64,000 nucleotides of DNA from an uncultured Eubacteriales bacterium (lineage in GTDB: Bacteria > Bacillota > Clostridia > Oscillospirales > Acutalibacteraceae). Made by a program: the position numbers and the translations under genes. This document shows positions 4,183-19,524 of this stretch, piece after piece. The stretch lies in the NCBI GenBank assembly GCA_934729465.1, contig CAKVEP010000007.1:9380-73379 (forward strand), read 5' to 3'. The first letter of the stretch is position 1; every line of letters starts with the position of its first letter. Below the pieces are notes generated by a model. That model ran no database searches. It was not told where the DNA came from and worked only from the letters and a program-made list of their open reading frames with translations.

Positions 4183-4355
4183 TTTTCATCAGGTAATTCA
4201 ATTTTGCCATGCTCTTTTTCAAATTCATTTACAAAATTTCTTATAAAATTAAGAATTTGTCCATTAGCAGACCTGTCTTCATATTTGCAGGCATATCTAA
4301 ATTTTTTAAGTAAATCATCTTCTATTCTTACAGAAAGATGTCTAATATCATTCAT
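4179..4355 (-). CDS. Ribbon-helix-helix (Arc/CopG-like) regulator, 58 aa (not in the ORF track)
   Basis: Minus-strand ORF MNDIRHLSVRIEDDLLKKFRYACKYEDRSANGQILNFIRNFVNEFEKEHGKIELPDEN. An RHH beta-strand motif follows the start. GGAGGTG RBS. Its stop overlaps the terL stop. Confidence 0.55.
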   Translation of the reverse strand: MNDIRHLSVRIEDDLLKKFRYACKYEDRSANGQILNFIRNFVNEFEKEHGKIELPDEN

Positions 4356-4405
4356 AATACACCTCCAAAAAGAACTTTATATAGGTTCATTTTATCCATA
4401 AAAAA

Positions 4406-4450
4406 TGATATAATGTGCTCAAGAACCCATATTGAACCTTATACAGGTTC
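4406..4450 (+). promoter_or_regulatory. Extended -10 promoter (TGATATAAT) plus palindromic operator gaacct-N5-aggttc in the divergent RHH/SLOG intergenic region
   Basis: TGnTATAAT at 4406-4414. Perfect 6-bp inverted repeat at 4434-4450. A related half-site (tataggttc) lies near the RHH start. Confidence 0.45.
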
Positions 4451-4472
4451 TAAATTTTAAGAGGTGAAGAAT

Positions 4473-4808
4473 ATGAAAGTAGCAATAATAGGTTCAAGGA
4501 GTTTAACAAACGTAGAAATATCAAAATTCATCCCAAAAGATACAACGGAGGTAATCTCTGGTGGAGCGAAAGGTATCGACACCTTAGCGGAAGAATGGGC
4601 GGATAAAAACGGTATACCGAAAACGATTATCAAGCCAGAGTATGAGAAATATAAACGTGGCGCACCGTTAAAAAGAAATGAAAAAATCGTTGAAAGTGCA
4701 GACATAATAATTGCCCTCTGGGACGGAAAATCCAGAGGGACGAAATTTACGATAGATTATGCAAAAAAACTAAACAAGGAAGTGAAAATTTACATTGCAG
4801 ACAAATAG
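4473..4808 (+). CDS. SLOG-superfamily protein (DUF2493 / YpsA-DprA-LOG-like), phage accessory
   Basis: Rossmann-like GSRS...GGAKGID...ALWDGKSRGT motifs typical of DUF2493. ATG at 4473 with a GAGGTG RBS. Confidence 0.55.
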   Translation: MKVAIIGSRSLTNVEISKFIPKDTTEVISGGAKGIDTLAEEWADKNGIPKTIIKPEYEKYKRGAPLKRNEKIVESADIIIALWDGKSRGTKFTIDYAKKLNKEVKIYIADK

Positions 4809-4881
4809 TGTAAATATGTATTGATTTTGTGTAAATAATGTGATACAATATGAATATACTAATACTGAGGAGGTAATTAAA

Positions 4882-5151
4882 ATGGCAAAAACAGAAACCT
4901 TACACATGAGAATTGACGCAGATTTAAAGAGTAATGCAGAGTATCTTTTAAACCAATTGGGGATGTCTACAACCGAAGCTGTTAGTATATTTTTAAGACA
5001 GGTTATTTTAAACAGAGGACTTCCCTTTGATGTAAAACTGCCAAAGTATAACGAAGAAACCGAAGAGGCTATGAGAGAAGCAAGAAAAATCAGTAAAAAT
5101 GGAAAAGGGTTTAATGATATAGATTCTCTTTTTGAGGAGCTTGACAAATAA
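4882..5151 (+). CDS. dinJ: DinJ/RelB-family antitoxin
   Basis: The MAKTETLHMRIDADLK RHH N-terminus is typical of DinJ. GGAGG RBS. Overlaps the toxin gene start (TAATG). Confidence 0.75.
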   Translation: MAKTETLHMRIDADLKSNAEYLLNQLGMSTTEAVSIFLRQVILNRGLPFDVKLPKYNEETEEAMREARKISKNGKGFNDIDSLFEELDK

Positions 5152-5423
5152 TGCTGGAAATTAAATTTACGTCTAAATTTAAAAAAGACTATAAATTAAT
5201 AAAAAAGCGTGGTATGAATATTAATCTTTTAAAAGAAATAGTCAATAAATTAGCAAATAATATTCCTTTGGAGGAAAAGTACAAAGACCACGAACTAATG
5301 GGGAATTACAAAGGATTTAGAGAGTGTCACATACAACCCGATTGGTTACTTATTTATCTTATTGAAGATAATAAATTAACATTAACTCTTTCCAGAACAG
5401 GGACGCATTCAGATTTATTTTAA
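5151..5423 (+). CDS. yafQ: YafQ/RelE-family mRNA interferase toxin
   Basis: 90 aa with the YafQ-like motifs DYKLIKKRG and HELMGNYKGFRECHIQPDWLLIY. Translationally coupled to the antitoxin. Confidence 0.75.
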   Translation: MLEIKFTSKFKKDYKLIKKRGMNINLLKEIVNKLANNIPLEEKYKDHELMGNYKGFRECHIQPDWLLIYLIEDNKLTLTLSRTGTHSDLF

Positions 5424-5487
5424 AAAATTTAAAGATTAGCTATGTACAATTATGTGCATGGCTTTTTCTTTTTAGAGGAGTGAAAAA

Positions 5488-6684
5488 GTGAATATATTTA
5501 AGAGAAAGCGAGCAGAACCAACAGTATCTCCGCCCGTAGATGATGTTTTATTAAAATCTTTGCTTTACGGAGAAGAAATAGACCGAGAAAAAGCACTAAA
5601 TGTCCCAGCAGTAGCAAAGTGTGTAAATTTAATATCCGAAACCGTCAGCATGATACCGATTAAGCTATATAAAGAGGAAATGGTAGACGGAAAGTCAAAA
5701 ACAATCGAAGTTGCAGGCGATAACCGCCCCGACTTGTTAAATGATGACACAAAGGACACATTAAACGGCGTACAGTTTAAGCGGGTGATAGTCAGAGATT
5801 ATTTGCTTTTCGGGAAAGCGTACGCGTATATAAATAAAAAGAGAAACAACGTGCAATCACTACACTATATAGAAGCACAGAAAGTGCAGGTAAATAAAAA
5901 TTTTGACCCAATATTTAAAGATTATGACTTAATCGTACATGGGCAAACGTACAAACCTTTTGAATTTATAAAAATTACACGAGCAAGCACAGACGGAATA
6001 AACGGAGCAGGAATAATCAAGGAAAATCAAGAATTATTAAAAATAGCGTATCAGACGTTAAAATTTGAACAGAATTTAGTCACAACGGGCGGTAATAAGC
6101 GAGGATTTGTAAAGTCAAAAAACACGCTCACAAAAGAAGCAATTAAAGCTCTAAAAGACGCATGGCACAAGATGTATTCAGACCCAAGCGAAAATAACGT
6201 GGTAATATTAAATAACGGTTTAGAATTTCAGGAAGCAAGCAGTACATCAGTTGAAATGCAGCTAAACGAAAGCAAAATAGCGACAAACAACTCAATCCTA
6301 GATATTTTAGGGGTGCCGCAAGATTTTAATTATGAAACATTTATAAAAACAGCAGTAATGCCCGTAATAACGGCGATAGAATGCGCATTAAACAAAGACT
6401 TACTTCTCGAAAAAGAGAAAAAGTCTTTTTATTTTGCGTTCGATACGAAAGAAATTACAAAAGGCGATATTAAGACACGTTTTGAAGCATATAAGACCGC
6501 ACTTGACGCAAATATTATGCAGATAGATGAAATTCGCTATATGGAGGATTTAGAGCCGTTAGGATTAAATTTCATAAAACTTGGTTTACAAGATGTTTTA
6601 TTTAATCCCGAGACAAAGGAAGTCTACACGCCAAACACAGGACAGACCGCGACAATTAAAGAAAATATAGGAGGCGACGGATAA
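5488..6684 (+). CDS. Phage portal protein (HK97 family)
   Basis: 398 aa downstream of terminase. Portal-like sequence with a GTG start after a GGAGTG RBS. Confidence 0.8.
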   Translation: MNIFKRKRAEPTVSPPVDDVLLKSLLYGEEIDREKALNVPAVAKCVNLISETVSMIPIKLYKEEMVDGKSKTIEVAGDNRPDLLNDDTKDTLNGVQFKRVIVRDYLLFGKAYAYINKKRNNVQSLHYIEAQKVQVNKNFDPIFKDYDLIVHGQTYKPFEFIKITRASTDGINGAGIIKENQELLKIAYQTLKFEQNLVTTGGNKRGFVKSKNTLTKEAIKALKDAWHKMYSDPSENNVVILNNGLEFQEASSTSVEMQLNESKIATNNSILDILGVPQDFNYETFIKTAVMPVITAIECALNKDLLLEKEKKSFYFAFDTKEITKGDIKTRFEAYKTALDANIMQIDEIRYMEDLEPLGLNFIKLGLQDVLFNPETKEVYTPNTGQTATIKENIGGDG

Positions 6685-7292
6685 TGCAAGTAGAAGTGAG
6701 AAATGACAGTGTACTTTTGGACGGATATGTAAACGCAGTAGCGCGCGATTCAAAGCCAATGTTAGACGAAAACGGAGAAAAGTTTATAGAGCAGATAACG
6801 CCAAAAGCATTTGAGAGAGCAATCGGAAGAAACGAGGACATTTTATGTCTATTAAACCACGAGCCAAATAGGAAATTAGGAAGCACAAAGGACGGAAATA
6901 TAAAACTTTTTGAGGATAATATCGGACTTAGGGCGATATGCGAAATCACGGACAGCGAAGTGATAGAAAAGGCAAAAGAGCAGCGGCTCAGAGGTTGGAG
7001 TTTTGGTTTTGAGGCTATTAAAGAACACGAAGAAACCATAAGCGATAACTTAAAACGTAGGTTTATTGACGAAATGAATTTACTCGAAGTGTCGATAATA
7101 GATGATAAAAAAGTGCCGTGTTATGTAGGAACGAGCATTGAAACAAGAGCCGAAAAACTAATAAAAACAGAGTTTAGAGGGCGAGAAGCTCCGTGCGTTT
7201 TTATAACCAATCAGAGTTTAAACACGCCACAAGAAATAGATTATTCAGTTTATGAAAATATTTTAAAACAAGTACAAAATAAAAGAATTTAA
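6684..7292 (+). CDS. Prohead maturation protease (HK97 family)
   Basis: 202 aa. Conserved position between portal and capsid. Start overlaps the portal stop. Confidence 0.8.
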   Translation: MQVEVRNDSVLLDGYVNAVARDSKPMLDENGEKFIEQITPKAFERAIGRNEDILCLLNHEPNRKLGSTKDGNIKLFEDNIGLRAICEITDSEVIEKAKEQRLRGWSFGFEAIKEHEETISDNLKRRFIDEMNLLEVSIIDDKKVPCYVGTSIETRAEKLIKTEFRGREAPCVFITNQSLNTPQEIDYSVYENILKQVQNKRI

Positions 7293-7307
7293 AGGAGATT
7301 GAAATTT

Positions 7308-8462
7308 ATGAAACTAAAGTATTTAACCGAGCAAAGAGCAGAGAATCAAAGCAAAATGCAAGAAATGTTAAATGGAGCAAAGGATGAAAAAAGAGCCATG
7401 ACGGAGGAAGAAATTAAGAAATTTAAGGAACTTAAAAAGATGATTGACGAAATAGACGAGACAATAAAAGCTGAAGAAATCGCAAGAAAAGAGGAACTTG
7501 ATGAAAGCCAAAAAGAAGAAACAGATAAACAGTCGGAAAGCGCAGAAATCACGGAGCAAAGAGCTTTTGCAAACTTTATAAGAGGAATTAAAGCTGAAAA
7601 AAGAGCAAACAATCTTGACTTAGGGAACAACGGAGCAATTGTACCGCAGACAATAGCGAATAAAATTATTGAAAAAGTTAAGGAAATATGCCCGATTTAT
7701 AGCCTTTCAGAAATTTACAACGTCAAAGGCGATTTAGTAATTCCCTATTACAGTGAAAATGCAGGCGAAGATATAACTTGTGCATATGCTACCGAATTTA
7801 CAGACCTAACAAGTACCGCAGGAAAATTTACAAGTATAAATTTATCGAGCTATTTAGCAGGAGCACTAACTAAAATTTCAAAATCCCTTATAAATAAGAG
7901 CGATTTTGATTTGACAAATTTTGTGATTAATAAAATGAGCGCAGCAATCGCAGAATTTATTGAAAAAGAGCTTTTAAGCGGTACAGGTACAAATGCGTGT
8001 CAAGGAGTTTTAACAGGTGCGACAAATATTGTTGAAAGCTCGACAAGCGGAAAAGTAAGCGCAGATGATTTAATAGATTTACAAGAAAGCGTAATCGATA
8101 ACTACCAGAAAAACGCGGTATTTATAATGAATAGAAGCACTCGAAAAGCAATCAGAAAATTAAAGGACGGAGATGGAAATTATCTTTTAAATCGCGATAT
8201 TACATCTGCGTGGGGTTACTCATTACTCGGGAAACCAGTTTATACAAGCGAAAATATGCCAGAAATCGGAGTAAATAAAAAAGTAATAATTTACGGCGAT
8301 ATGACAGGCTTATCGGTAAAATTAGCAAAAGACGTTGAAATTCAAGTTTTGCAGGAATTATACGCCGCACAGCACGCTTTAGGGGTTGTAGGTTGGGTTG
8401 AAATTGACGGCAAAGTTACAGACCAACAAAAACTCGCGGTCTTACAAATGAAATCCGAATAA
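7308..8462 (+). CDS. Major capsid protein (HK97 fold)
   Basis: ~385 aa with an N-terminal delta-domain-like acidic coiled coil, then a capsid domain. AAAGGAG RBS before the ATG at 7308. Confidence 0.8.
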   Translation: MKLKYLTEQRAENQSKMQEMLNGAKDEKRAMTEEEIKKFKELKKMIDEIDETIKAEEIARKEELDESQKEETDKQSESAEITEQRAFANFIRGIKAEKRANNLDLGNNGAIVPQTIANKIIEKVKEICPIYSLSEIYNVKGDLVIPYYSENAGEDITCAYATEFTDLTSTAGKFTSINLSSYLAGALTKISKSLINKSDFDLTNFVINKMSAAIAEFIEKELLSGTGTNACQGVLTGATNIVESSTSGKVSADDLIDLQESVIDNYQKNAVFIMNRSTRKAIRKLKDGDGNYLLNRDITSAWGYSLLGKPVYTSENMPEIGVNKKVIIYGDMTGLSVKLAKDVEIQVLQELYAAQHALGVVGWVEIDGKVTDQQKLAVLQMKSE

Positions 8463-8505
8463 GTTGAAATACACAAAAATTAATATTTGAAAGGAACGCG
8501 GGCGG

Positions 8506-8802
8506 ATGAAAATTAGTGAGATAACAACGGATAATCTCATAAATTATTTGAGGTTATCCCCCGAAGAAATGGACGAAAAAGAAGCAGCCGAAATAAAGAC
8601 TTTTTTAGAAACCGCCAAAGAATTTATATATTCATACACAGGGCTAACGCCCGATGAAGCCGACAGCCACGAGGATTTTTCTATTTGCGTGTTTGTTTTG
8701 GTGCAGGATATGTACGATAATCGGTGCTTTTACGTTGATAAAAGCACCTTAAATAAAGTTGTAGAAATAATTTTAAATATGCACAGAATTAATTTATTGT
8801 GA
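8506..8802 (+). CDS. Head-tail connector (gp6-like)
   Basis: 98-aa acidic protein directly after the capsid gene. Confidence 0.5.
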   Translation: MKISEITTDNLINYLRLSPEEMDEKEAAEIKTFLETAKEFIYSYTGLTPDEADSHEDFSICVFVLVQDMYDNRCFYVDKSTLNKVVEIILNMHRINLL

Positions 8803-8810
8803 GGCAAAAA

Positions 8811-9140
8811 ATGTATGTAAATGCAGGAAGTTTTAATAAAAAAATAGAGATAATCAAGTTAGAAGAAACCAAAGATAAAGACGGTTTTCCTGTAAAAAAC
8901 GAAGTTTTGGTATTAAAAACATGGGCGCAGATTACAAATATCAGCGGAACGGAATTAATTAAAAGTAATTCGGATTTTGCGCAGATAAAGACGAGATTTT
9001 TAGTTCGCACACCGAAAAAAATTATCAAAAAAGATATGTTTATCAAGTTTAGAAATAATTTTTATAATATAACTTATGTTAACAATTACTGTTTTAAAGA
9101 CCAGTACACCGAGATAATAGCGGAGTTGGTGGTGAAATAA
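8811..9140 (+). CDS. Head closure / head-tail adaptor protein
   Basis: Size and position in the conserved order. GAGG RBS before the ATG at 8811. Confidence 0.5.
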   Translation: MYVNAGSFNKKIEIIKLEETKDKDGFPVKNEVLVLKTWAQITNISGTELIKSNSDFAQIKTRFLVRTPKKIIKKDMFIKFRNNFYNITYVNNYCFKDQYTEIIAELVVK

Positions 9141-9532
9141 TGGCAGATTTTAGCGCGTCTGTAAATTTAGAAGATATTATCCCAGAAGCCCTGCAAGATG
9201 AAAATTTGGCAAAAGAAATGGTAAAATTAGGGCAACAAGTTTTACAAAACGCAATAAAAAATAATGCACAAAAATATAAGAAAACGGGTTCAATGGCAAA
9301 TTCAGTAAAGGCAAAAGCCCCGACATTAACCAGAAGCGGAGGAGTTGTCGGGAGTGTGACGTTTACGGGAAAAGACAAAAACGGAATGAACAACGCACAA
9401 AAGGCTTTATGGCTGGATTATGGAACAAAGCATATAAATGGGACGGCATTTGTAAGGTCGGCGGTAAAATCGAGTGAGAGCGCAATTTTGCAGGCTATGG
9501 AGCAAATTTTTAATCAGAAAGCAAAGGGGTGA
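9140..9532 (+). CDS. Tail-component protein (HK97 gp10-like neck protein)
   Basis: Position and size. Start overlaps the upstream stop. Confidence 0.45.
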   Translation: MADFSASVNLEDIIPEALQDENLAKEMVKLGQQVLQNAIKNNAQKYKKTGSMANSVKAKAPTLTRSGGVVGSVTFTGKDKNGMNNAQKALWLDYGTKHINGTAFVRSAVKSSESAILQAMEQIFNQKAKG

Positions 9533-9583
9533 TTTTAAATTAATATCAATCCGATAGTTGAGGAAATTTTAAAAAATTTTGAG

Positions 9584-9889
9584 GTGGACGGGACAAAAAT
9601 CCCTATTTGCTTTTTACAGTTTACGGGGCAATCAGAGACATATTTAACCTATTATACATGGTACGAAAAGCCCGATAATTTTTCAGATGACGAGCATAAA
9701 AACGAAATTTCATATTTGACTGTTGATGTGTTTTCAAAGAAAAATTTTAAGGACATAGTTAAAAAGCTAAAAAAGATTATGAAGCAAAGTGGCTTTATAT
9801 GGGAGGATACAGCCCCCGAACAATACGAAAGCGACACGGGATATTATCATGTGCCCGTGAATTTTTATTATTTAGGAGATGTTGAATAA
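9584..9889 (+). CDS. Tail completion protein (GTG start)
   Basis: Position before the major tail protein. Start overlaps the next gene. Confidence 0.45.
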   Translation: MDGTKIPICFLQFTGQSETYLTYYTWYEKPDNFSDDEHKNEISYLTVDVFSKKNFKDIVKKLKKIMKQSGFIWEDTAPEQYESDTGYYHVPVNFYYLGDVE

Positions 9890-10446
9890 TGGCAGGAATA
9901 GGTTTAAAAAGTTTTAAATATGCAAAATTAAACGATGACGGCAAAACGTACGGAGAAGTAAAAACGCTTGCGGGAGCGATTGAATGTAAAGTATCAATCG
10001 AGCTTGCGGAGGCAACGCTTTATGCGGACGATAGCGTAAAAGAACAAGTATCGGTATTCAAAAGCGGCACAATAACAGCAGGAATTGATGATGATAACGA
10101 TAAAATTTTTGCGGAACTTTTAGGGCAGACAATAGACGAGGAAAGCGGACTTGTAACGTCTAATGCGAGCGATACGCCAATTTATGTGGGATTTGGACAT
10201 ATTGTTCCGAAAATGGTAGGAGGAAAAAGGAAGTATAAGGTGGAATGGTTCCCGAAAGTCAAATTTAAACCATTTATAACGGACGCAAAAACAAAGGGTG
10301 ACAGCTTAGAATTTACCACGCCATCAGTAGAAGCGACAATCTTTGAAGATAGCGATGGCAACTGGGAAAAGCATAATATTTTTAATACGGAAGATGAAGC
10401 GGTAACAGGACTAAATGCACTTTTTGTGCAGCCTCAAACAGCTTAG
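9889..10446 (+). CDS. Major tail protein (phi13/TP901-1-like)
   Basis: 185 aa. MAGIGLKSFKYAKL N-terminus typical of siphovirus major tail proteins. Lies immediately before the chaperone pair. Confidence 0.75.
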   Translation: MAGIGLKSFKYAKLNDDGKTYGEVKTLAGAIECKVSIELAEATLYADDSVKEQVSVFKSGTITAGIDDDNDKIFAELLGQTIDEESGLVTSNASDTPIYVGFGHIVPKMVGGKRKYKVEWFPKVKFKPFITDAKTKGDSLEFTTPSVEATIFEDSDGNWEKHNIFNTEDEAVTGLNALFVQPQTA

Positions 10447-10459
10447 GAGGAAGTTTTAA

Positions 10460-10810
10460 ATGCTTGATACAATAAAATATTTAGAAACAGAAAGTGAAAA
10501 ATATCCCTTAGCTTTTACGCTAAATGTCATGGAAATAATACAGGAAAAATACGGCAGCATTGAGACTTGGAGTGAACTCATACAGAAGCAAGGCGAACCA
10601 GATATAAAAGCATTAAAATTTTTCATCACGGAGGCAATTAACGAGGGACTAGATATTGAATCAGAAAAAACAGGGGAAAAGAGGGAACTAATCACACCCA
10701 GAAAAGCGGGGAGAATTTTAACTGAAATCGGATTAAAACAAGCAACAAATACAGTAGCAAGTGTAATAACCGAAAGCGTACGAGCGGATAAAACCTCAAA
10801 AAACGAATAA
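10460..10810 (+). CDS. Tail assembly chaperone (G-like)
   Basis: 116-aa acidic protein between the major tail protein and the tape measure. Ends in the slippery site A_AAA_AAC. Confidence 0.6.
   Translation: MLDTIKYLETESEKYPLAFTLNVMEIIQEKYGSIETWSELIQKQGEPDIKALKFFITEAINEGLDIESEKTGEKRELITPRKAGRILTEIGLKQATNTVASVITESVRADKTSKNE
10798..10804 (+). promoter_or_regulatory. -1 programmed ribosomal frameshift slippery heptamer A_AAA_AAC (G to GT)
   Basis: The heptamer is in the X_XXY_YYZ register of ORF 10460..10810, two codons before its stop. The -1 frame continues into ORF 10831..11088. Confidence 0.6.
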
Positions 10811-10830
10811 CGCCCGCAGGAGATAGAAGT

Positions 10831-11088
10831 GTGGGCGGTAAAAATACAAATTTATGTTTAGAGAATGAGTGCGAAATGGGTCAAGCGTCATGTTTGGATT
10901 TTTCATGGCTTTTATTTGTAGGAGTGAAAATGCTCGGTTTTACGGAAAAAGCAGTCGGGCGTATGACACTAAAAAAATGGAATTTGTTATTTGAACATTT
11001 TAAAAAATATCACAATTTTAAGACTAAAGGCGGGCTTTTCAAAGAGGAAAAGGAAGTAATCCAAGATGACGAGTGGATTAAAGGTTAG
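10831..11088 (+). CDS. Tail assembly chaperone T segment (expressed as a G-T fusion through the -1 frameshift)
   Basis: The ORF is in the -1 frame relative to G and starts just after the slippery site. This is the conserved G/GT arrangement of siphoviruses. Confidence 0.5.
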   Translation: MGGKNTNLCLENECEMGQASCLDFSWLLFVGVKMLGFTEKAVGRMTLKKWNLLFEHFKKYHNFKTKGGLFKEEKEVIQDDEWIKG

Positions 11089-11124
11089 TTGTGGTTAAAA
11101 CCATTGTGTGCAGCATATAATATA

Positions 11125-11153
11125 TTGACGTACGCAAAAACGTATGTTATAAT
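11125..11153 (+). promoter_or_regulatory. Consensus sigma-A promoter (TTGACG-17-TATAAT) driving the yefM-yoeB moron
   Basis: Exact -35 and -10 hexamers with a 17-nt spacer. The spacer contains a partial palindrome (acgtacg..acgtatgt) that could be the YefM operator. Confidence 0.6.
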
Positions 11154-11171
11154 ATAAACGGGGTGATTTAT

Positions 11172-11420
11172 ATGTATAACACTAATGTAACTAATGCAAG
11201 GGCGAATTTATATAATTTAATAAATATGGCTATTGACAATAACGAAGTAATTAATATTAATACAAAAAACGGAAATGCAGTACTCATTAGCGAAGAAGAT
11301 TATAATTCTTTAATAGAGACACTTTATCTGTCATCAGACCCAGAGTATAAAAAGTCTTTAATTAATGGAAAAAATACTCCCTTAGAAGACTGTGTAGATG
11401 AGGAAGAGGTTGAATGGTAG
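11172..11420 (+). CDS. yefM: Phd/YefM-family antitoxin
   Basis: 82 aa with YefM fold signatures (NARANLYNLI, EEDYNSLIETLYL). ATGGTAG overlap with the toxin gene. Confidence 0.75.
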   Translation: MYNTNVTNARANLYNLINMAIDNNEVININTKNGNAVLISEEDYNSLIETLYLSSDPEYKKSLINGKNTPLEDCVDEEEVEW

Positions 11421-11680
11421 GATTCAAAGTAAAGTTTACAAAACAAGCGGTAAAAGATTTAGAATACTTAAAAGCCGCAAATCTCTCTAAAAAAGCAAAA
11501 AAATTAGTTGATATAATGAAAGAAAACCCGTATCAAAATCCCCCTCCTTATGAGAAGTTAATTGGTGATTTAGACGGTATGTATTCAAGGAGAATAAATA
11601 TTCAACATAGATTGGTTTATGAGGTTGATAACGAAGAAAAGATTATAAAAATTATTAGAATGTGGAAACATTATGAATAA
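11414..11680 (+). CDS. yoeB: YoeB/Txe-family toxin
   Basis: 88 aa with YoeB motifs (KFTKQAVKDLEYL and YSRRINIQHRLVYEV), ending ...WKHYE. Confidence 0.75.
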   Translation: MVGFKVKFTKQAVKDLEYLKAANLSKKAKKLVDIMKENPYQNPPPYEKLIGDLDGMYSRRINIQHRLVYEVDNEEKIIKIIRMWKHYE

Positions 11681-11737
11681 TTAGAAAAAGCGCTCAGGAG
11701 TGGGCGTTTTTTTGTTGTGCAAAAAGGCGGTGAAAAC

Positions 11738-13657
11738 GTGGGAGTAACAACATTTGGAGGAAAAATAAAGTTAGAGGGCGAGCGTGAATATAGGCAGGCG
11801 ATCTCGCAGATAAATTCAGATTTAAAAGTGTTTTCTTCAGAGATTGGAAAGTTAACGGCGGAGTTTGGCAAAAATGATACGTCTACAAAGGGTTTAACGG
11901 AGCGGAACAAGGTTTTAACCGAACAAATTGAAAAACAAAAAGAAAAAATAGCGACTTTAAAAGGTGCGGTCGAGGATTCGGCGGAGCAGTATGGCGAACA
12001 TGACAAAAAGACAAATAACTGGAAAACGACTTTAAACAAAGCCGAAGCAGAGCTAACCAAAATGGAAAAAGAACTGGACGGCAATAACAAACAGCTTGGC
12101 GAAAACGGAGAAAATTTAGATGACGGGAGTAAATCTCTTGATGAATTTTCTAAAAGTGAGGACGAAGCAGGACAAAAAGCCCTTAAGTTCGGAGACTTGG
12201 TTAAGGCAAATTTAGTAAGCGAAGTGATAATAAGCGGGATAAAGAAGCTTGGCGAGGGTATAACGAAAGTCAAAGAATATTTGACGGATTCGGTAACAGC
12301 GGCAGCAAGCTATGCGGACAATATTTTAACTATGTCTACACAAACAGGTATCAGTACGCAGACTTTACAAGAATACGGTGCAGTAGCGGAACTTGTAGAC
12401 GTAAGTGTTGATACCATGACAGGTTCAATGGCGAAAAATATAAAATCCATGACGAGTGCTGCAAGCGGAACGGGAACGGCGGCGGAAGCATATAAAAAGC
12501 TGGGCGTATCCGTTACGGATTCGAGCGGAAATTTAAAAGATAGCGAACAAGTTTATTGGGATACAATAGACGCTTTAGGGAAAATTCCAAATGAAACTGA
12601 GCGCGACAGCATAGCTATGCAAATTTTAGGTAAATCCGCACAAGATTTAAACCCATTAATAGCGCAAGGAAGTGCAGGAGTAGAAGAACTTACATCAAAA
12701 TATGCCAGATTTGGAACGGTTCTATCAGAAGAAGCCCTCAACTCTTTAGGGGCACTTGATGATAGTATGCAAATTTGGAAAATCACGACAGAAGCAACGG
12801 GAAATTTACTCGGAACACTTCTAGCTCCTGCAATGACAGATATCATAACTAATGCTAACGATATGTCAGGCGAATTAAATTCTTTAATAGATTCAGCTTT
12901 CAACGGAGGGGATATGGAAGCAGCGGTGATGAACTTTGCTGATACAGTTAGAGAAGCTGTAACGAATATATCTGGGGCTATCCCCCAGATAATCGAAGTT
13001 GGGAAGAATCTTATTTCAGTGCTTTTAGAGGGTTTAACCGCTGCTCTACCTTATATTTTAGAAGCCGCGGGACAAATAATTCCTGAAATAATCACGGGGA
13101 TAACATCAGTTTTACCACAGCTAACAAACGCAGCAATTACTATAATTATGGCGCTTTCCACCGCACTAATTAATTCTTTGCCACAAATTATTCAAGCGGG
13201 AGTAGAAGTCATCACAACACTTGTCAGCGGAATATCACAGTCTTTACCTATTTTAATTCCTGCAATCGTGTCCGCCATGATATTAATTGCGCAGTCTTTA
13301 ATTGACAACATAGACTTAATAATACAAGCAGGAATTGATTTGTTTATGGGACTGGTACAATCAATCCCGCAGATTATAGCCGTTTTAGTACCGAAAATTC
13401 CAGAGATAGTAAACAGTATAGTAAATGCTTTAGTAAATAATGTTCCTTTACTTTTAGACGGAGCAATAACACTTTTCATGGCGATAGTATCGGCAATCCC
13501 CGAGATTATCGTTATTTTAGTACAAAACGTGCCTCAGATTGTAACGGCGATAATTAATGGGCTTTCAAAACTTCCAGAACTAATCGGAGGAATTTTAGGA
13601 ACAGTTTTAAATAGATTCACCGAGTGGGGCGTATTCAAGCACGATAAAAAAATATGA
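11738..13657 (+). CDS. Tail tape measure protein (start GTG 11738 with RBS; the track uses 11717)
   Basis: Long helical protein with the usual TMP features: coiled-coil N-terminal part, then Gly/Ala/Ile-rich hydrophobic repeats. It sits after G/GT. Confidence 0.7.
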   Translation: MGVTTFGGKIKLEGEREYRQAISQINSDLKVFSSEIGKLTAEFGKNDTSTKGLTERNKVLTEQIEKQKEKIATLKGAVEDSAEQYGEHDKKTNNWKTTLNKAEAELTKMEKELDGNNKQLGENGENLDDGSKSLDEFSKSEDEAGQKALKFGDLVKANLVSEVIISGIKKLGEGITKVKEYLTDSVTAAASYADNILTMSTQTGISTQTLQEYGAVAELVDVSVDTMTGSMAKNIKSMTSAASGTGTAAEAYKKLGVSVTDSSGNLKDSEQVYWDTIDALGKIPNETERDSIAMQILGKSAQDLNPLIAQGSAGVEELTSKYARFGTVLSEEALNSLGALDDSMQIWKITTEATGNLLGTLLAPAMTDIITNANDMSGELNSLIDSAFNGGDMEAAVMNFADTVREAVTNISGAIPQIIEVGKNLISVLLEGLTAALPYILEAAGQIIPEIITGITSVLPQLTNAAITIIMALSTALINSLPQIIQAGVEVITTLVSGISQSLPILIPAIVSAMILIAQSLIDNIDLIIQAGIDLFMGLVQSIPQIIAVLVPKIPEIVNSIVNALVNNVPLLLDGAITLFMAIVSAIPEIIVILVQNVPQIVTAIINGLSKLPELIGGILGTVLNRFTEWGVFKHDKKI

Positions 13658-14705
13658 AATCAAGATTAACGGTCAGGCTTTTAGTCAATCAAATTTCACA
13701 ACAAATCCACTAACAGGGAGTGGCACTTGTACAGTTAAGATAACGGATTCAAGAAACAGGACAGCGAATCAAAGTCTTTCGTACTCAGTAACGAGTTATG
13801 CAAATCCGACTATCAATAATTTTACAGTTGTAAGATGTAATCAAGACGGCACAGAAAGTGACGAGGGGGCATATGCAAAATGCACCCTTAAATCCACTAT
13901 TTCAAGCGTAAATAATAAGAATGACAAAAATTTTCAATTATTTTATAAAAAGCTTACTGATAGCAATTATACTACAATAAGTTTGTCAAACAACAGTTAT
14001 TCTTATGATAATACACAAATCATCGTAGCCGATATAAATAGCGAATATGAGTTCATTTTCAATGTAACAGATTATTTTAGTACAGTACAAAAATCACTAA
14101 ATTTAGGGACAGCATTCACGCTTGTTGACTACAACGCAAGCGGTCGGAGCGTAGCTTTTGGGAGAGTATCAACAGCAACATCAAGCCAGAAAAAATTACA
14201 AATTAAACTTGATACCGAAATCGAGGGAACATTAAAAATAAATAATAAAACAGTTTTTGATTTAATTTATCCAGTAGGTTCTATCTATATGTCCGTAAAT
14301 AGCACAAATCCAAAAGACTTATTTGGCGGAACTTGGTCACAATGGGGCTCGGGACGTGTACCAGTATGCGTCAATGTTTCTGATTCAAGTTTTGATACAG
14401 CCGAAAAAACAGGAGGTAGTTTGTCACATCGGCATGAGTTTAGAATTGGTATGCACTGGTGGTATGGCGGGGCTTGCGGAGAGGGTTCATATAGTGAAAC
14501 AGGTGCGTATCGCTTTTCCGATAACCAATATGACGGTTGGGCGAGAGAATTAGATGGACAATCTTTACGCGTAAACAGTGCAATTTACAACAATTCTTCT
14601 ACAACAACCGCAAATCCAAACGGGAAATGGTCTAGGGGCGATACGTCAGAATCAAGCAATTTACAACCTTATATAACGTGTTACATGTGGAAAAGAACAG
14701 GTTAA
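13611..14705 (+). CDS. Tail fibre / receptor-binding-like protein frame with no start codon (open in the +1 frame relative to the TMP; first possible start is TTG 13983)
   Basis: Frame 0 is open from 13611 to the stop at 14705. It encodes the conserved ...PVGSIYMSVNSTNPKDLFGGTWSQWGSGRV... motif common in Firmicute phage host-specificity proteins. There is no ATG/GTG/TTG between 13611 and 13983. Confidence 0.45.
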   Translation: MDSPSGAYSSTIKKYEIKINGQAFSQSNFTTNPLTGSGTCTVKITDSRNRTANQSLSYSVTSYANPTINNFTVVRCNQDGTESDEGAYAKCTLKSTISSVNNKNDKNFQLFYKKLTDSNYTTISLSNNSYSYDNTQIIVADINSEYEFIFNVTDYFSTVQKSLNLGTAFTLVDYNASGRSVAFGRVSTATSSQKKLQIKLDTEIEGTLKINNKTVFDLIYPVGSIYMSVNSTNPKDLFGGTWSQWGSGRVPVCVNVSDSSFDTAEKTGGSLSHRHEFRIGMHWWYGGACGEGSYSETGAYRFSDNQYDGWARELDGQSLRVNSAIYNNSSTTTANPNGKWSRGDTSESSNLQPYITCYMWKRTG

Positions 14706-14907
14706 ATTTTAAAGGTATATATTAAAAACTAGATTTACCCAAACATCTGGATTTAAAGTAGACTATCTCATATGCTTGAAACATTTTGACAGGTATTTTA
14801 ATTTTAAGAGGGAGCACCTATATCTATGATATTTTTAAAACTTTCACAAATATAAAATAAAAACTTTCCATGAATAAAAATTCACAGAAAGAATATTATA
14901 ATAATGT

Positions 14908-14936
14908 GTTGACAATAGACAACACAAAGTATATAA
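14908..14936 (+). promoter_or_regulatory. Consensus sigma-A promoter (TTGACA-17-TATAAT) with an overlapping inverted repeat tgtgttg-N8-caacaca
   Basis: Exact hexamers seen directly. The 7-bp IR spans the -35 element. Confidence 0.55.
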
Positions 14937-14942
14937 TAAAAG

Positions 14943-15045
14943 TAGTAGGAGCAAAACCGTTTGAAAAGCGGTCAGCCTCCAAAAGAATCTACTAATAAAA
15001 GCCGATACTGTGGTGAGTGGCGGCTTTTATATTTTTGTGTTTTTA
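14943..15045 (+). ncRNA. Candidate small RNA (~100 nt) from the consensus promoter to an intrinsic-terminator-like hairpin (aaagccg...cggcttt followed by a T-run)
   Basis: No ORF. 5' tagtag pairs with a downstream ctacta. There is an internal hairpin accg...cggt and a terminal GC hairpin with U-tract at 14997-15045. Confidence 0.3.
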
Positions 15046-15326
15046 TCTATATAATTAACAGCACTAAATAGCACTATAAAATACATTATAAGAGGACTTA
15101 TAAAAATGATAAAATCCAACATAATATCTACCTCCTCTGGGAGGCAGATTAACCGCCATTCATAGGCTAAACTCCTACTACTAATGTATCATTATAAATT
15201 ATAGAACAAGCAATTACAACATAATTCTACAAAGAAAAATAAGTTTATAAAGGCTCGCTAAATTTGATTAGCCAGCCTTTTTTATTTTATATAAATACAA
15301 GAAATAAATATTTTTTATTTTTAGCA

Positions 15327-15375
15327 TTGACTTTTGTCGACAAAAAGGATAGAATAATTTTGTCAGACAAAAGGA
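15327..15375 (+). promoter_or_regulatory. Promoter TTGACT-17-TAGAAT with two direct repeats of tttgtc(g/a)(a/g)acaaaagga (putative operator for the downstream RHH protein)
   Basis: Repeats at 15333-15349 and 15358-15375, one within the spacer and one just downstream of the -10. The first contains the palindrome gtcgac. Confidence 0.45.
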
Positions 15376-15383
15376 GGGTAGAA

Positions 15384-15551
15384 TTGACAAAGCCTAAAAT
15401 AGGCAGACCTACTGATGACCCTAAACCTTTCAAAATAGATGTAAGATTAAGTGAACGTGATATAAATATACTTGATGATTATTGCAAAAGGACGGGAAAG
15501 ACTCGACCAGAAAGTGTCAGGGAAGCGATTAGAGGTCTCAAAGAAAAATAA
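15384..15551 (+). CDS. Ribbon-helix-helix (CopG-like) transcriptional regulator, 55 aa (TTG start with AAGGAGGG RBS)
   Basis: ...KIDVRLSERDINILDDYCKRTGKTRPESVREAIRGLKEK is an RHH pattern. The upstream part of track ORF 15264 lacks an RBS. Confidence 0.45.
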   Translation: MTKPKIGRPTDDPKPFKIDVRLSERDINILDDYCKRTGKTRPESVREAIRGLKEK

Positions 15552-15696
15552 AAAGAGAGTAGGCGTGTTGTCAGACACTTATTCACCTACTCCGTATACA
15601 CCCACAGCCCAAAAGAGCTAGAGTATAAATATTATATCATGTGCTTAATGAACTTTCAAGTTGGCTGGGGGAAATAATTTGAAAGGAATTTAATTT

Positions 15697-16086
15697 ATGA
15701 GCAAAGATTTTAACAAAAAGACGGAAATTGAAGAGCTGGCATGCAAGATATTGGAAAGCATTATAAATACATTTAGCTAGCCTACATATTTATCACAGAG
15801 ACACAAAGAAAATTCAGAATATTATGACGAATTTGAAAAAGAGTTTGAGAAAGGACTAAGTTATGAGCAAAAAAAAGATTTAGATTCACTAATATCAATA
15901 AAAAATGCAGTAGAATCAACACAATTTGACTATACATTGCTTTTGGGAATGCAAATAAAATCTGCCATAGAAGAAATAATAAAAAATCCTCTTAAAATCT
16001 TAAATTTATACGACAACGAGGGAATCCCTGTTAGAGATATTTATAAATCTATTAAGCAAAGAAGTGAGGGTGTCAATAATGGGTAA
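15697..16086 (+). pseudogene. 129-codon ORF interrupted by an in-frame TAG at 15778-15780 (27 aa, amber, then 101 aa); hypothetical
   Basis: The reading frame is continuous apart from the single amber codon. Its 3' end overlaps the ATG of the next gene (ATGGGTAA), which suggests an operon. Confidence 0.3.
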
Positions 16087-16440: not shown

Positions 16441-16880
16441 TTGTTTGCTAATTTACCACCTATTTTACTTTATTCACCAATATTTGTTTATAAATTCATC
16501 CCCAAAATCCGTCTATAAGGGTGAGAGGAAATTTATTCTAATCAATGTACTTTGAAAATTGAATACATACATTCTCAGCCACGTTGTCCGCTGTGTTTCA
16601 AGTGAAACAAGCGTTTTATACGGTGCGCCAAGACCTAAATGATATATTAAAATTTACACTTCTATTATATACAAATTTAGCGAGCGATATTCCACCAATA
16701 TATAAAATCGTCTGTGGTGGGCGATTCTCAACAACAGCAGCGGTGATAATGATACTCCTACATAGTCGAGGTTAAGTCCCAGAGTGTAGCCCAAGGAAGG
16801 GACGTGCAATTCGTGTGTTGATACCTAACCAGTATCAGGTTGAGGATGTCAAAAAAATTTATTTATAAGGAGTTTTTATA

Positions 16881-17603
16881 TTGAATTTGGACTATGAACA
16901 CGTTATCAATAAAAAAATAAATGGATGTGACATATCAATTTATTTTTCAAAAGAGCACAATCCAAAAATTAAAGAGAAAGATAGATATATAAGGAAAGAC
17001 GGAAGTGAGTATAAAATAGATGAATTAAAATATACTTGCTACCATAAGACAAGGAAATTAAGCGATTGTGACGGACAGACTTCATACAGAGCCGAGAAAA
17101 TAGACAACGCAGTTTTAGCGGTACTTGAAGATTTATTTAAGAAAATAAAAGAAATACCGCAATCAAAAGCACTTGAAAGACGGTATAAATTGCAAGTATC
17201 GGGATGTAATGAGAGATATAAAAAAGCGAATGCCGAAGTAGAAAAGTTAGGCAATCAACTAAGAACATTAAAACTTGAAATCGGTAAGGCTCTAGTAGGG
17301 GAAAGCACATTTACAGCGGAACAACTAAGCGAAGCAATCAAAGTTACGCAAAATAAATTAAGTGAAGCAAACTTAGAAATGGAAAAAGTAAAATCACAGT
17401 TAGATAACAAAAAAGAAGCTATGGGGAAACTAGGTTACCATTATGAAAGTTTTTTAAGTTGGGCAAATGAATTTGAAAATTCACCGCTCGAGCAAAGAAA
17501 AATGATAGCGTGTCAGCTTATAAGACAAGTTTTAGTTAGCGCAGGATATAACATAAAGATTGAGTTTGATATGAACTACCAGCAGTTTTGCGAGGGATTA
17601 TAA
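16881..17603 (+). pseudogene. Large serine recombinase C-terminal fragment (zinc-ribbon/coiled-coil plus DUF4368-like tail); catalytic resolvase domain absent
   Basis: The 240 aa resemble the C-terminal half of SpoIVCA/TnpX-type recombinases (coiled-coil ...LRTLKLEIGKAL..., ending ...QLIRQVLVSAGYNIKIEFDM). A stop lies 12 nt upstream in frame. No Ser-recombinase catalytic domain is found upstream. Confidence 0.45.
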
Positions 17604-17783: not shown

Positions 17784-18035
17784 ATGTCTGAATTTAAATA
17801 CGATACGCAACTTTTGATTGAAGGAAAAAATTTAAGTGAAGAAAAAATAAATGATTATTTTGTAAATAAATTTCAAGGAGATTGTCTTTTGGTGGTCAGT
17901 GATGATGATTTGGTTAAGATTCATTTTCATACAAATGAGCCATGGAAAGTACTAGAATATTGTGCAAGTATTGGAGAAATTTATGATATTATAATTGAGG
18001 ACATGGACAGGCAAGAAAGAGGATTAAAAGGATAA
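17784..18035 (+). CDS. Small protein resembling the C-terminal segment of DAK2/FakA-family proteins (possible gene fragment)
   Basis: ...GDCLLVVSDDDLVKIHFHTNEPWKVLEYCASIGEIYDIIIEDMDRQE resembles the conserved C-terminal end of fatty-acid kinase FakA. It has its own GGAGG RBS. Confidence 0.3.
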   Translation: MSEFKYDTQLLIEGKNLSEEKINDYFVNKFQGDCLLVVSDDDLVKIHFHTNEPWKVLEYCASIGEIYDIIIEDMDRQERGLKG

Positions 18036-18126
18036 AAATTTTGTGTAAATAAATATTTTATAATTAAAGATAAATAAAAAATAGGTTTATCCACAATTTT
18101 ATGGGTAAACCTGTTTTATTTAAATA

Positions 18127-19524
18127 TTATTTCCAAAACATAGTATCGTATATTCCGTTAGCAGGAGCGTTAAAAATGGGGTCTTTGTTTTGAGATTTTT
18201 GTTTTGAATAATCATTCAAAGCAAGCGTGGAACGCTTGGTAAGAAGAAGAATTGCTATGATATTAACAATGGCCATGAGTCCCATACAAATATCAGCGAA
18301 ATTCCAAACTACTTCAGCGCTCGCCATTGCGCCTAAAATAACAGGGATTATGCACATTGCCCTAAATATATTTAAAACATAGTGATTATCTTTAATAAAC
18401 AACAAATTGGATTCAGCATAGCAATAGTTACCAATTATTGAGCTAAATGCGAAAGCAAATATTGAAAAAGTCATAAAGTGAATCCCTATAGTTCCTATTT
18501 GACCGTTAAGAGCCTCTTGAACTAAAGGTATGCCATCGGCGTGACCGTCTATAGCAACACCGGACAACATTATTATAAAAGCTGTTGTGGTGCATATTAA
18601 AAACGTGTCTATAAACACAGATAAAACTTGAACAATTCCCTGTTTGACCGGGTGAGAAACATCAGCGGTTGCGGCGGCGTTAGGAGCACTTCCCATGCCA
18701 GCTTCATTTGAGAACAAACCTCTTTTTATTCCGATAAGTACGGCACTTCCGGCGAATCCGCCGAAGATAGATTTGAAATCAAAAGCTTTGCTAAAGATGA
18801 CGGAGAACATTGAGGGGAGCTTGTCTATATTTCTCAAAGTAATAAAGACGCCCAAAGATAAATAAATAATAGCCATTATTGGTACAATTATTGAAGAAAT
18901 AAATCCAATTCTGTGAACTCCACCAAAAATGATGAATGCGGTGAAAATACCAAGTACTATCCCAACGACTAACGGCCAAATGGAATGTTCGTATCCGGGA
19001 ATATAATATTGGAACGAAGACGAAATATTATACGCTTGAAGGGCGTTGAATCCAATTGCGAAACAAGATATTAGTAACACCGAAAATAAAATACCTATGC
19101 TTCTTTTGCCAAGAGCCATTTGTATATAATATGACGGTCCACCTCTAAAAGAATTTTCATCTTTATCATTAACTTTGTATATTTGAGCCAGTGTGCTTTC
19201 AACGAAAGCCGAAGCAGATCCAAGAAAAGCCATTATCCACATCCAAAATATAGCTCCGGGACCTCCTGCAACTAAAGCGGTTGTGATGCCCGCTATGTTT
19301 CCGGTTCCAACCTTAGAAGCTGTTGAAATCATAAGTGCTTGGAAAGATGACACTCGATTTCCAGAAGACTTTTCAGTCATAAGTTTTATGGACTCGGGAA
19401 GGAATCGCAACTGAACAAATTTAGTACGGAAGGTAAAATAGAGTCCGCACAAAACCAAAAGTGCAATGAGTATGTTACTGTACAAAAAATTATTAATGTT
19501 TGACAACATTGTTTCTAACTGCAA
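18127..19524 (-). CDS. agcS: Alanine/glycine:cation symporter (AGCS family)
   Basis: 465 aa. Multi-TM protein with AGCS-family architecture. Confidence 0.8.
   Translation of the reverse strand: MQLETMLSNINNFLYSNILIALLVLCGLYFTFRTKFVQLRFLPESIKLMTEKSSGNRVSSFQALMISTASKVGTGNIAGITTALVAGGPGAIFWMWIMAFLGSASAFVESTLAQIYKVNDKDENSFRGGPSYYIQMALGKRSIGILFSVLLISCFAIGFNALQAYNISSSFQYYIPGYEHSIWPLVVGIVLGIFTAFIIFGGVHRIGFISSIIVPIMAIIYLSLGVFITLRNIDKLPSMFSVIFSKAFDFKSIFGGFAGSAVLIGIKRGLFSNEAGMGSAPNAAATADVSHPVKQGIVQVLSVFIDTFLICTTTAFIIMLSGVAIDGHADGIPLVQEALNGQIGTIGIHFMTFSIFAFAFSSIIGNYCYAESNLLFIKDNHYVLNIFRAMCIIPVILGAMASAEVVWNFADICMGLMAIVNIIAILLLTKRSTLALNDYSKQKSQNKDPIFNAPANGIYDTMFWK

Follow-up and report, generated by a model that had tools for sequence, protein, structure and literature searches.

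The closest described counterparts of the tail gene examined here are the DUF859 (PF05895)/Gp10_C minor structural proteins of siphophages, known from Streptococcus prophages and as the 'tail protein' of the gut phages Ca. Heliusvirales. These proteins have ~590–640 residues, and their genes lie past Tal, where the tail module ends. The DUF859 family is functionally uncharacterised: the literature on it is nearly empty, with three papers mentioning it in a full-text search, and the DUF859 protein has no NCBIfam model. Overlapping frames in phage tail genes are known from the programmed −1 shift of the gpG/gpGT chaperones. As for prophages that have lost genes, the cryptic prophages of E. coli K-12 are defective prophages that decay by deletion.

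The locus described here lies in the window, i.e., the whole stretch of 64,000 nucleotides that was analysed. The window contains a siphovirus-type prophage that has become defective (cryptic); its host belongs to the low-GC gut Clostridia. One frame of the locus matches, over its whole length, the ~360 C-terminal residues of the DUF859/Gp10_C proteins but has neither the DUF859 N-terminal part nor the start codon. The locus resembles the gpG/gpGT genes in that two frames overlap in the tail module and an A-run lies near the overlap. However, the A-run at 13646–13652 is off the frame junction and ancestrally in frame, and intact relatives do not share the overlap. The prophage shares with the cryptic prophages of E. 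coli K-12 its locking in the chromosome, structural genes cut by deletions between short direct repeats, a shortened integrase, nonsense mutations, and the retention of toxin-antitoxin morons. It differs from them in its host (uncultured, low-GC gut Clostridia), in the early stage of its decay, with most head and tail-tube genes open, and in the intact allele that still circulates at 96–99% identity (in the prophage L200).

Results

The tape measure protein (TMP) gene comes after two ORFs (10460–10810 and 10831–11088) in the position of the tail chaperone pair; between these two ORFs, at 10798–10804, lies a canonical candidate for a real −1 site, A AAA AAC. As read from the sequence, the TMP ORF (11717–13657, 646 aa) begins with GTG and ends with a TGA at 13655–13657, just past a run of seven A (hereafter A7). 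The +1 frame, which is frame 0 of the window, opens at 13611, just behind a TAA at 13608–13610, and extends uninterrupted over 364 codons to its own stop at 14703–14705. Its first ATG, GTG, or TTG is the TTG at 13983, and the 124 codons that precede it are start-less. The original prediction, made from the sequence of this region, had described the position of the TMP stop just past A7 and the long start-less opening of the +1 frame accurately.

It had also placed a conserved domain in the +1 frame, and this domain was recovered: the frame matches the Pfam profile Gp10_C (PF21939, E = 1.7e-24, 87.7 bits for a cut-off of 27) and the 'tail protein' family PHROG 372 (profile positions 269–643 of 743). 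Chance is no plausible source of the match, given that even the start-less stretch shows homology to complete tail proteins right from its first residues. Over its entire 364 residues, the remnant shares 98% identity with P0001, a protein of 620 aa with DUF859 and Gp10_C domains, and its DNA is 99.0–99.3% identical to positions 10788–11863 of L200. Pfam gave no DUF859 match in the remnant, whereas the full-length proteins (P0001 and that of the related prophage L164) have one; all that is left of the gene is its C-terminal 58%, which is presumably untranslated. The C-terminal domain matches T4 gp10 (PDB 2fkk, E = 1.5e-5), a likeness of sequence only. To call it 'receptor-binding' is an over-reading: on this similarity, it is best described as a putative baseplate domain, like the C-terminal one of T4 gp10, within a DUF859 minor structural protein.

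The TMP side was identified by the PHROG TMP families 5493 (E = 3.5e-36) and 58 (E = 6.7e-34), and the Pfam profile PhageMin_Tail scored just under its cut-off (E = 8e-7, 29.5 bits for a cut-off of 33.2). It is 99.3% identical to L200 4667–6579, which is part of a TMP of 901 aa. Matches to the TMP relatives at 74–84% identity end at residue 638 in all cases. The C-terminal 263 residues of the L200 TMP (...GIHSPSKVFEDEVG...) are missing from that of the window; past the point where the two diverge, the L200 protein continues as ...EWGGNVIKTGKEK... instead of ending within a few codons (Table 1).

Table 1. Features of the defective prophage discussed in the text (positions in the window)
Feature	Position	Strand	Description and basis
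5' remnant of the tape measure gene	11717..13629	+	native codons 1–638; 901 codons in the intact relative
Deletion junction	13621..13629	+	sole kept copy of the 9-bp direct repeat CGAGTGGGG; 13/14 matches over 13616–13629
Out-of-frame tail of the TMP ORF	13630..13657	+	eight foreign codons (V F K H D K K I) and TGA, in DNA of the DUF859 gene
3' remnant of the DUF859/Gp10_C tail-protein gene	13630..14705	+	codons ~263–620 of 620 and stop; no promoter-proximal start
A7 run	13646..13652	+	native in-frame DUF859 codons ATA AAA AAA TAT (I K K Y)
Pseudogene of a 129-aa prophage gene	15697..16086	+	C-to-T at 15778 (CAA to TAA); codon-by-codon comparison with L200 12870–13259
Second deletion junction (839 bp relative to L200)	16478..16486	+	9-bp repeat CAATATTTG; blastn offsets and endpoint alignment
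Chimeric ORF from a third deletion (1,182 bp, junction ~16977/16978)	16881..17603	+	comparison with L200 14893–15090 and 15175–16797

The prophage L200 is near-identical to that of the window (96–99% identity) and intact. It encodes the 901-aa TMP, Dit (Sipho_tail), Tal (Prophage_tail), and a DUF859 and Gp10_C protein of 620 aa that starts with ATG. When compared by blastn, positions 8512–13629 of the window match L200 1459–6579 (96.1% identity) and positions 13616–15333 match L200 10774–12491 (99.0% identity). These two matches overlap at exactly 13616–13629, only at the repeat. In a three-way alignment, the repeat CGAGTGGGG is present at both endpoints in L200, at ~6571–6579 and 10779–10787 (9/9 matches, 13/14 when extended), and once in the window, which follows the TMP side of L200 to the left of it and the tail-gene side to the right, with a clean switch. 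The segment missing relative to L200 measures 4,208 bp and encodes the C-terminus of TMP, Dit, Tal, and the N-terminus of the DUF859 protein; the loss thus amounts to TMP codons 639–901, both tail-tip genes, and ~262 DUF859 codons. Since 4,208 leaves a remainder of 2 on division by 3 (3n+2), the TMP and DUF859 remnants are out of frame with each other. The more distant, intact L164 and L161 give the same junction, with 4,838 bp and 4,757 bp missing, respectively, both again 3n+2. We rejected the reverse polarity, i.e., that L200 gained 4.2 kb by insertion. The genes that abut the junction are both shortened in the window (638 of 901 native codons for TMP, codons ~263–620 of 620 for the DUF859 gene) and complete in L200 and in the distant phage NatCom_19828; the TMP is also complete in L164 and L161, and the order TMP-Dit-Tal-DUF859 is conserved.

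Alignment with related prophages, a check proposed with the original prediction, placed Dit and Tal between the TMP and tail-protein genes in both L200 and L164. An unfused arrangement with a valid start in relatives had been named as evidence against a fusion, and this is what we found: TMP, Dit, Tal, and the tail protein are separate genes in both, the last with ATG in L200 and with ATA at the start position in L164. The latter prophage has Dit, Tal, a GrpB moron, and the DUF859/Gp10_C gene, and NatCom_19828 has the same order of TMP, Dit, Tal, and a DUF859-type gene.

The scar, together with A7, is also found in two other independent assemblies, L082 (IMG/VR) and L199 (ENA ERZ827156). The three scar assemblies come from different projects and are base-identical at the junction and at A7, with 0.5–15% difference elsewhere; the head genes of L082 are only 82–85% identical. 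The site patterns of the window, L082, L199, and L200 conflict (with L164 as a too distant outgroup), and relative to the intact L200 the copies with the scar do not clearly form a single clade. Either a single origin with recombination or recurrent deletion at the same repeat may thus account for the scar. A DNA search of the GenBank phage collection revealed no close relative, the only match being of 110 nt at 74.5% identity. Protein-guided scans of IMG/VR returned a scar-bearing twin (L002/L082) and no other close copy; the next-best relatives, 41–46% identical, are too distant for a base-level view of the junction.

Further lesions lie downstream (Table 1). The 839-bp deletion takes out a gene with a Sigma70_r4 domain (Pfam scan of L200 14066–14464). 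In the chimeric ORF, a small ORF from upstream contributes ~32 codons, and a large serine recombinase of 540 aa contributes its C-terminal ~208 codons. The intact recombinase of L200 has Resolvase, Recombinase, and Zn_ribbon_recom domains; that of the window lost the resolvase domain, which is the catalytic domain of the integrase, and retains only matches to Zn_ribbon_recom and to the C-terminal part of PHROG 95. A different deletion, of 957 bp, affects the same gene in L082, and the distinct recombinase deletions in the two copies indicate ongoing decay. Among close copies, nonsynonymous to synonymous differences number 2:3, 2:3, and 5:3 in the DUF859 remnant versus 5:12, 5:17, and 3:12 in the TMP part, a suggestive hint of relaxed constraint in the remnant, given that there are only 5–8 differences per pair in the remnant and that the pairs are not independent. 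The open frame of the remnant implies that the deletion is recent or that the elapsed time was too short for visible decay. The upstream head, connector, and tail-tube genes are all still open, and the element includes two toxin-antitoxin pairs. We infer that the prophage cannot make tails.

Discussion

The comparisons above make it very probable that the join between TMP and the start-less frame was left as a scar by a 4.2-kb deletion of tail-tip genes, and was not produced by a frameshift at A7. No observation ran counter to the deletion. Of the explanations put forward in the original prediction, the deletion of Dit, Tal, and the 5' end of a fibre-like gene is the one that stood, and it could be mapped to the base against L200. 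A homopolymer length error or +1 frameshift that fuses TMP to a C-terminal domain fits poorly: the change of frame occurs at the deletion junction, 17 nt upstream of A7. The emphasis on A7 as a site of slippage was likewise misplaced, as L200 and L161 have the run natively and in frame in their intact genes, and it is identical in the three scar assemblies. Nor does the homology in frame 0 begin at or after A7; it starts ~20–25 nt upstream, at 13621–13632.

The mechanism would belong to the class of microhomology-mediated deletions. The ancestral tail module probably encoded the tail chaperones, a YefM/YoeB toxin-antitoxin pair, a TMP of 901 aa, a Dit of 209 aa, a Tal of 597 aa, and a DUF859/Gp10_C protein of 620 aa. 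One event of illegitimate recombination or replication slippage between the copies of CGAGTGGGG, which fall in TMP codons 636–638 and in DUF859 codons 260–262, probably dropped the 4,208 bp and left a single copy of the repeat at the junction. The TMP ORF therefore runs through eight wrong-frame codons to a chance TGA, and the DUF859 remnant is still open in the +1 frame, deprived of a start codon and a ribosome-binding site.

That the arrangement is a sequencing or assembly artefact, with a different true length of the A-run or a collapsed assembly masking separate intact genes, is exceedingly improbable. Indel errors are known to arise in homopolymers, and a single base sets the two frames apart, but another length of the run could neither bring back 4.2 kb nor give the remnant a start codon. 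The base-identity of junction and A7 across assemblies from different projects also speaks against an artefact, as does the repeat, since 9 bp do not suffice to collapse an assembly; in L200, the intact allele was assembled normally. Recoding on A7 would require a +1 slip of the ribosome (tRNA-Lys moving from the AAA at 13649–51 to that at 13650–52) or the loss of one A in transcription, to yield a functional TMP-DUF859 fusion. Such AAA-to-AAA re-pairing is formally possible, even if trivially so for any A7 run. Moreover, the run sits between the frame-0 stop (13608–10) and the TMP stop (13655–57), the frame of the remnant has stayed open throughout, and three assemblies retain the arrangement. 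We nevertheless consider recoding highly unlikely. A7 is older than the deletion and is plain Lys-Lys coding in the intact genes. It lies 17 nt into the DUF859 remnant and does not coincide with the end of the TMP homology and the start of the tail-gene homology, both at 13621–13629, so any fusion would carry the wrong-frame residues VFKHDKK. The two-frame arrangement is absent from the intact relatives: in L200, L164, and NatCom_19828, Dit and Tal lie between a TMP gene and a distinct DUF859-type gene. The RNA downstream of A7 is not unusually structured: no stimulatory structure was found in the 80 nt from 13653 (−12.6 kcal/mol, z = −1.36, with 17 of 200 shuffles folding as well), and a reading of the sequence showed no Shine-Dalgarno-like stimulator at the right spacing, a few nt upstream of the run. 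A7 runs are commonplace in the window, where 58 are found, fewer than the 161 expected from shuffles, and seven A's are a short run for efficient slippage. Finally, with Dit and Tal gone, the tail tip could not be built whatever is fused.

A different question is whether the deleted element is a domesticated derivative kept by the host, head-only or toxin-antitoxin-bearing, in which the tail deletion was fixed because it prevents lytic killing. Three diverged copies bear the same scar, and the head genes of L082 are at only 82–85% identity, which implies that the element persisted and recombined once the deletion had occurred. The genes for head, connector, and tube are open alongside the two toxin-antitoxin pairs, and the integrase was independently disabled in two copies. 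We still regard domestication as improbable, because the continuing and differing deletions and the nonsense mutation indicate decay rather than maintenance, and the substitution counts, which are too small, give no positive sign of selection; the identity of the junction would be unchanged either way. It is also very doubtful that this tail-less and integrase-less prophage is retained as a toxin-antitoxin-stabilised element bearing a head module, in which low-level slippage on A7 might yield an active TMP-DUF859 chimera, the sole grounds for this being the persistence of the scar in three diverged copies and the frames that are still open.

The deletion scar, our preferred reading, is for a cryptic prophage a routine case of microhomology-mediated deletion, with nothing new in principle. 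Its significance lies mainly in annotation. One deletion event made pseudogene fragments of both the 646-aa 'TMP' and the TTG-initiated ORF of 240 aa at 13983–14705. The labels of fusion, frameshifted gene, or short receptor-binding protein would be wrong for them, and the prophage should be annotated as defective. It offers a clean, base-resolved case of prophage decay by deletions between 9-bp repeats, with the intact allele still in the population.

Two reading frames at the end of the tape measure gene

The ORF of the tape measure protein (TMP) stops immediately after a run of seven adenines (A7), and an overlapping +1 frame runs for 124 codons before its first ATG/GTG/TTG, a TTG at 13983 (see table). 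The original prediction had described these two frames, the A7 and the missing start, and the sequence bears it out. The upstream ORF is a TMP, matching PHROG families 5493 (E=3.5e-36) and 58 (E=6.7e-34) and Pfam PhageMin_Tail (29.5 bits), with profile matches limited to the first two-thirds to three-quarters (e.g., positions 487-882 of 1102). Its relatives in GTDB genomes (74-84% identity) all stop matching at residue 638 of the window TMP and extend ~260 residues past the point where the match ends.

The +1 frame matches Pfam Gp10_C (E=1.7e-24) and positions 269-643 of 743 of PHROG 372 (‘tail protein’), so it corresponds to the C-terminal portion of something longer. When compared by tblastn with annotated phages and IMG/VR contigs, it aligned from residue 1-6 on, matching the last ~360 residues of tail proteins of ~620-640 aa. 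This homology begins upstream of A7, and the final dozen or so codons of the TMP ORF fall within it. The window motif SPSGAYSSTIKKYEIKING aligned with TASGSYSSTIKSYKI and INGAAGSYGSTIKSYSI of relatives, which places the Lys-Lys encoded by A7 within the conserved alignment. The domain is similar to the C-terminal one of T4 gp10, a baseplate protein (2fkk, E=1.5e-5); a ‘receptor-binding’ role is not established, and DUF859 proteins are uncharacterised.

Features of the prophage region in window coordinates
Feature	Position	Strand	Description
SLOG/YspA-like protein and RelB antitoxin/YafQ toxin pair	4464-5423		Between terminase large subunit and portal
Tail-chaperone pair	10460-10810 (frame 2), 10831-11088 (frame 1)		Differ by -1 frame
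Heptamer A AAA AAC	10798-10804		Zero frame UCA AAA AAC, at overlap of chaperone pair
YefM antitoxin and YoeB/Txe toxin pair	11163-11680		TIGR02116, E=1e-27; between tail chaperones and TMP
TMP ORF	11717-13657	+	646 aa, GTG start; stop TGA 13655-13657
+1 frame	13611-14705	+	364 codons; preceded by TAA 13608-13610; stop 14703-14705
Direct repeat CGAGTGGGG	13621-13629		9 bp, one copy left
A7 run	13646-13652		AAAAAAA
Nonsense mutation	15778		C-to-T, CAA to TAA, in gene 15697-16086 (129 aa), intact in L200
839-bp deletion	16478-16486		At a second 9-bp repeat, CAATATTTG; removes 132-aa Sigma70_r4-domain gene
Chimeric ORF	16881-17603		Left by 1,182-bp deletion; resolvase domain gone
1,182-bp deletion	~16977/16978		Joins small-ORF start to C-terminal ~208 codons of serine recombinase
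83-aa ORF	17784-18035		Isolated FakA-like middle domain (PF21645, E=2.5e-20), adjoining prophage right end

Intact relatives and the deletion junction

Used as the query in a protein search, the +1 frame retrieved P0001, a 620-aa protein 98% identical across the whole query and carrying both DUF859 and Gp10_C domains. Its contig (ENA ERZ27271080 k141_165707, locus L200) holds a near-identical prophage with an intact tail module, encoding, in order, a YefM/YoeB pair, TMP (901 aa), the tail-tip proteins Dit (Sipho_tail, 209 aa) and Tal (Prophage_tail, 597 aa), DUF859/Gp10_C (620 aa, ATG start), several small genes, and a large serine recombinase (540 aa). In the distant phage NatCom_19828, TMP (1011 aa) is followed by a 216-aa protein, two tail proteins, a 181-aa protein, the relative of the +1 frame (636 aa), and then holin, endolysin, and recombinases. 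L164, a more distant intact prophage, encodes Dit (PHROG 33), Tal (Prophage_tail), a GrpB moron, and DUF859/Gp10_C in the interval that corresponds to the scar. Dit and Tal, which the original prediction had proposed to seek in related prophages, are therefore both present between TMP and the tail gene in L200 and L164. The GrpB-family moron of L164 (15327-15887, - strand) lies between Tal and DUF859, and the L164 DUF859 gene (~15995) has ATA in place of the ATG start found in L200 and L161, another distant relative. The DUF859 gene of L161 is split by a frameshift (7506-7575), which may reflect an error in the MAG assembly or a further pseudogene.

The blastn alignment matched window positions 8512-13629 to L200 1459-6579 (96.1% identity) and 13616-15333 to L200 10774-12491 (99.0%). 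In a three-way alignment, L200 reads ...ATTCACCGAGTGGGG|AGGAAACGTC on the TMP side of the breakpoint and ...GTTTCAGCGAGTGGGG|CGTATTCAAGCACGATAAAAAAATATGAAA on the tail-gene side, and the window reads ...ATTCACCGAGTGGGGCGTATTCAAGCACGATAAAAAAATATGAAA. The window retains one copy of a direct repeat (13/14 matches when extended) and lacks the 4,208 bp found between the two copies in L200; this length, 3n+2, explains the +1 offset. Lost are TMP codons 639-901, all of Dit and Tal, and the first ~262 codons of DUF859; past this point, the TMP frame continues for eight foreign codons (VFKHDKKI) up to a TGA that occurs by chance. The same junction is obtained with the more distant intact relatives, which have 4,838 bp (L164) and 4,757 bp (L161) where the window has the scar, both 3n+2. 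The join is almost certainly a deletion between the repeat copies, an alternative already raised in the original prediction and here confirmed to the base by L200. It is a textbook cryptic-prophage scar of microhomology-mediated deletion, with nothing novel in kind.

The original prediction had also considered a length error or translational slippage at A7. The intact genes of L200 and L161 carry ATAAAAAAATAT in frame (I K K Y), so A7 is older than the deletion and part of the normal coding sequence; the L164 equivalent is ATAAAAAGCTAT (I K S Y). An assembly-specific homopolymer error is excluded because A7 is identical in two further scar-bearing assemblies: L082 (IMG/VR UViG_3300045988_187082; 1 mismatch across the 801 nt surrounding the junction) and L199 (ENA ERZ827156 NODE-1535; 98.8% over 5.5 kb). 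It is formally possible that a +1 slip of tRNA-Lys, or the loss of one A in transcription, makes a TMP-DUF859 chimera, which would carry the diagnostic peptide ...FKHDKK-YEIKING... There is no sign of programming or of any use for such a slip, and the loss of Dit and Tal would prevent a tail tip from being built even with the chimera. A7 runs are rarer than expected in this AT-rich window (58 versus 161 from shuffles), and the 80 nt from 13653, directly after A7, show no unusual RNA structure (z = -1.36). Unlike in programmed frameshifts, the frame change and the slippery run do not coincide, and the two-frame arrangement is missing from functional relatives; the junction thus falls outside that class. 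With A7 ancestral and in frame, and the frame change elsewhere, both A-run explanations are rejected in favour of the deletion. The tail module's genuine gpG/gpGT-type -1 programmed frameshift is probably the heptamer at the overlap of the chaperone pair.

Decay and history of the prophage

Beyond the tail deletion, the window has three more lesions relative to L200 (two deletions and a nonsense mutation, see table), and the element is a decaying, defective prophage. L082 keeps the segment lost in the 839-bp deletion, with the sigma-like gene; L199 matches this segment to the locus end (L200 position 14028), just before the Sigma70_r4 gene. In the recombinase region, L082 has a different deletion, of 957 bp (~16427), showing that the integrase was disabled independently in two scar-bearing copies. 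The tail deletion is common to all three copies, and the later lesions differ.

Among close copies, nonsynonymous to synonymous codon differences are 2:3, 2:3, and 5:3 in the remnant (the +1 frame) and 5:12, 5:17, and 3:12 in the TMP part; these counts fit relaxed constraint on the remnant and are too few to be conclusive. Site patterns conflict on a single origin versus recurrent deletion at the repeat. Compared with the window (2515-9146, 9131-15826), L082 is a mosaic: head, portal, and terminase are 81-88% identical and the scar-bearing tail region 97-99%. Head module and tail segment thus differ in history, a pattern that points to recombination.

The accessory genes also vary. The YefM/YoeB pair is present in L200 but not in L164, whose TMP gene adjoins the chaperone region; the SLOG/YspA-RelB/YafQ block is also missing from L164 (window positions 4182 and 5471 correspond to L164 4342 and 4338). 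In L164, the DUF859 gene is directly followed by those for an Amidase_3-SPOR endolysin and a 93-aa protein (17822-18776); the window counterpart (14705-14819) is ~110 nt of unrelated sequence, as in L200. The whole stretch from the tail gene to the recombinase has no recognisable endolysin or holin. The isolated FakA-like domain at the right end suggests integration into a fakA/DAK2-type gene.

These results are of value for annotation, in which the two gene remnants should be labelled as pseudogene fragments and the prophage as defective.
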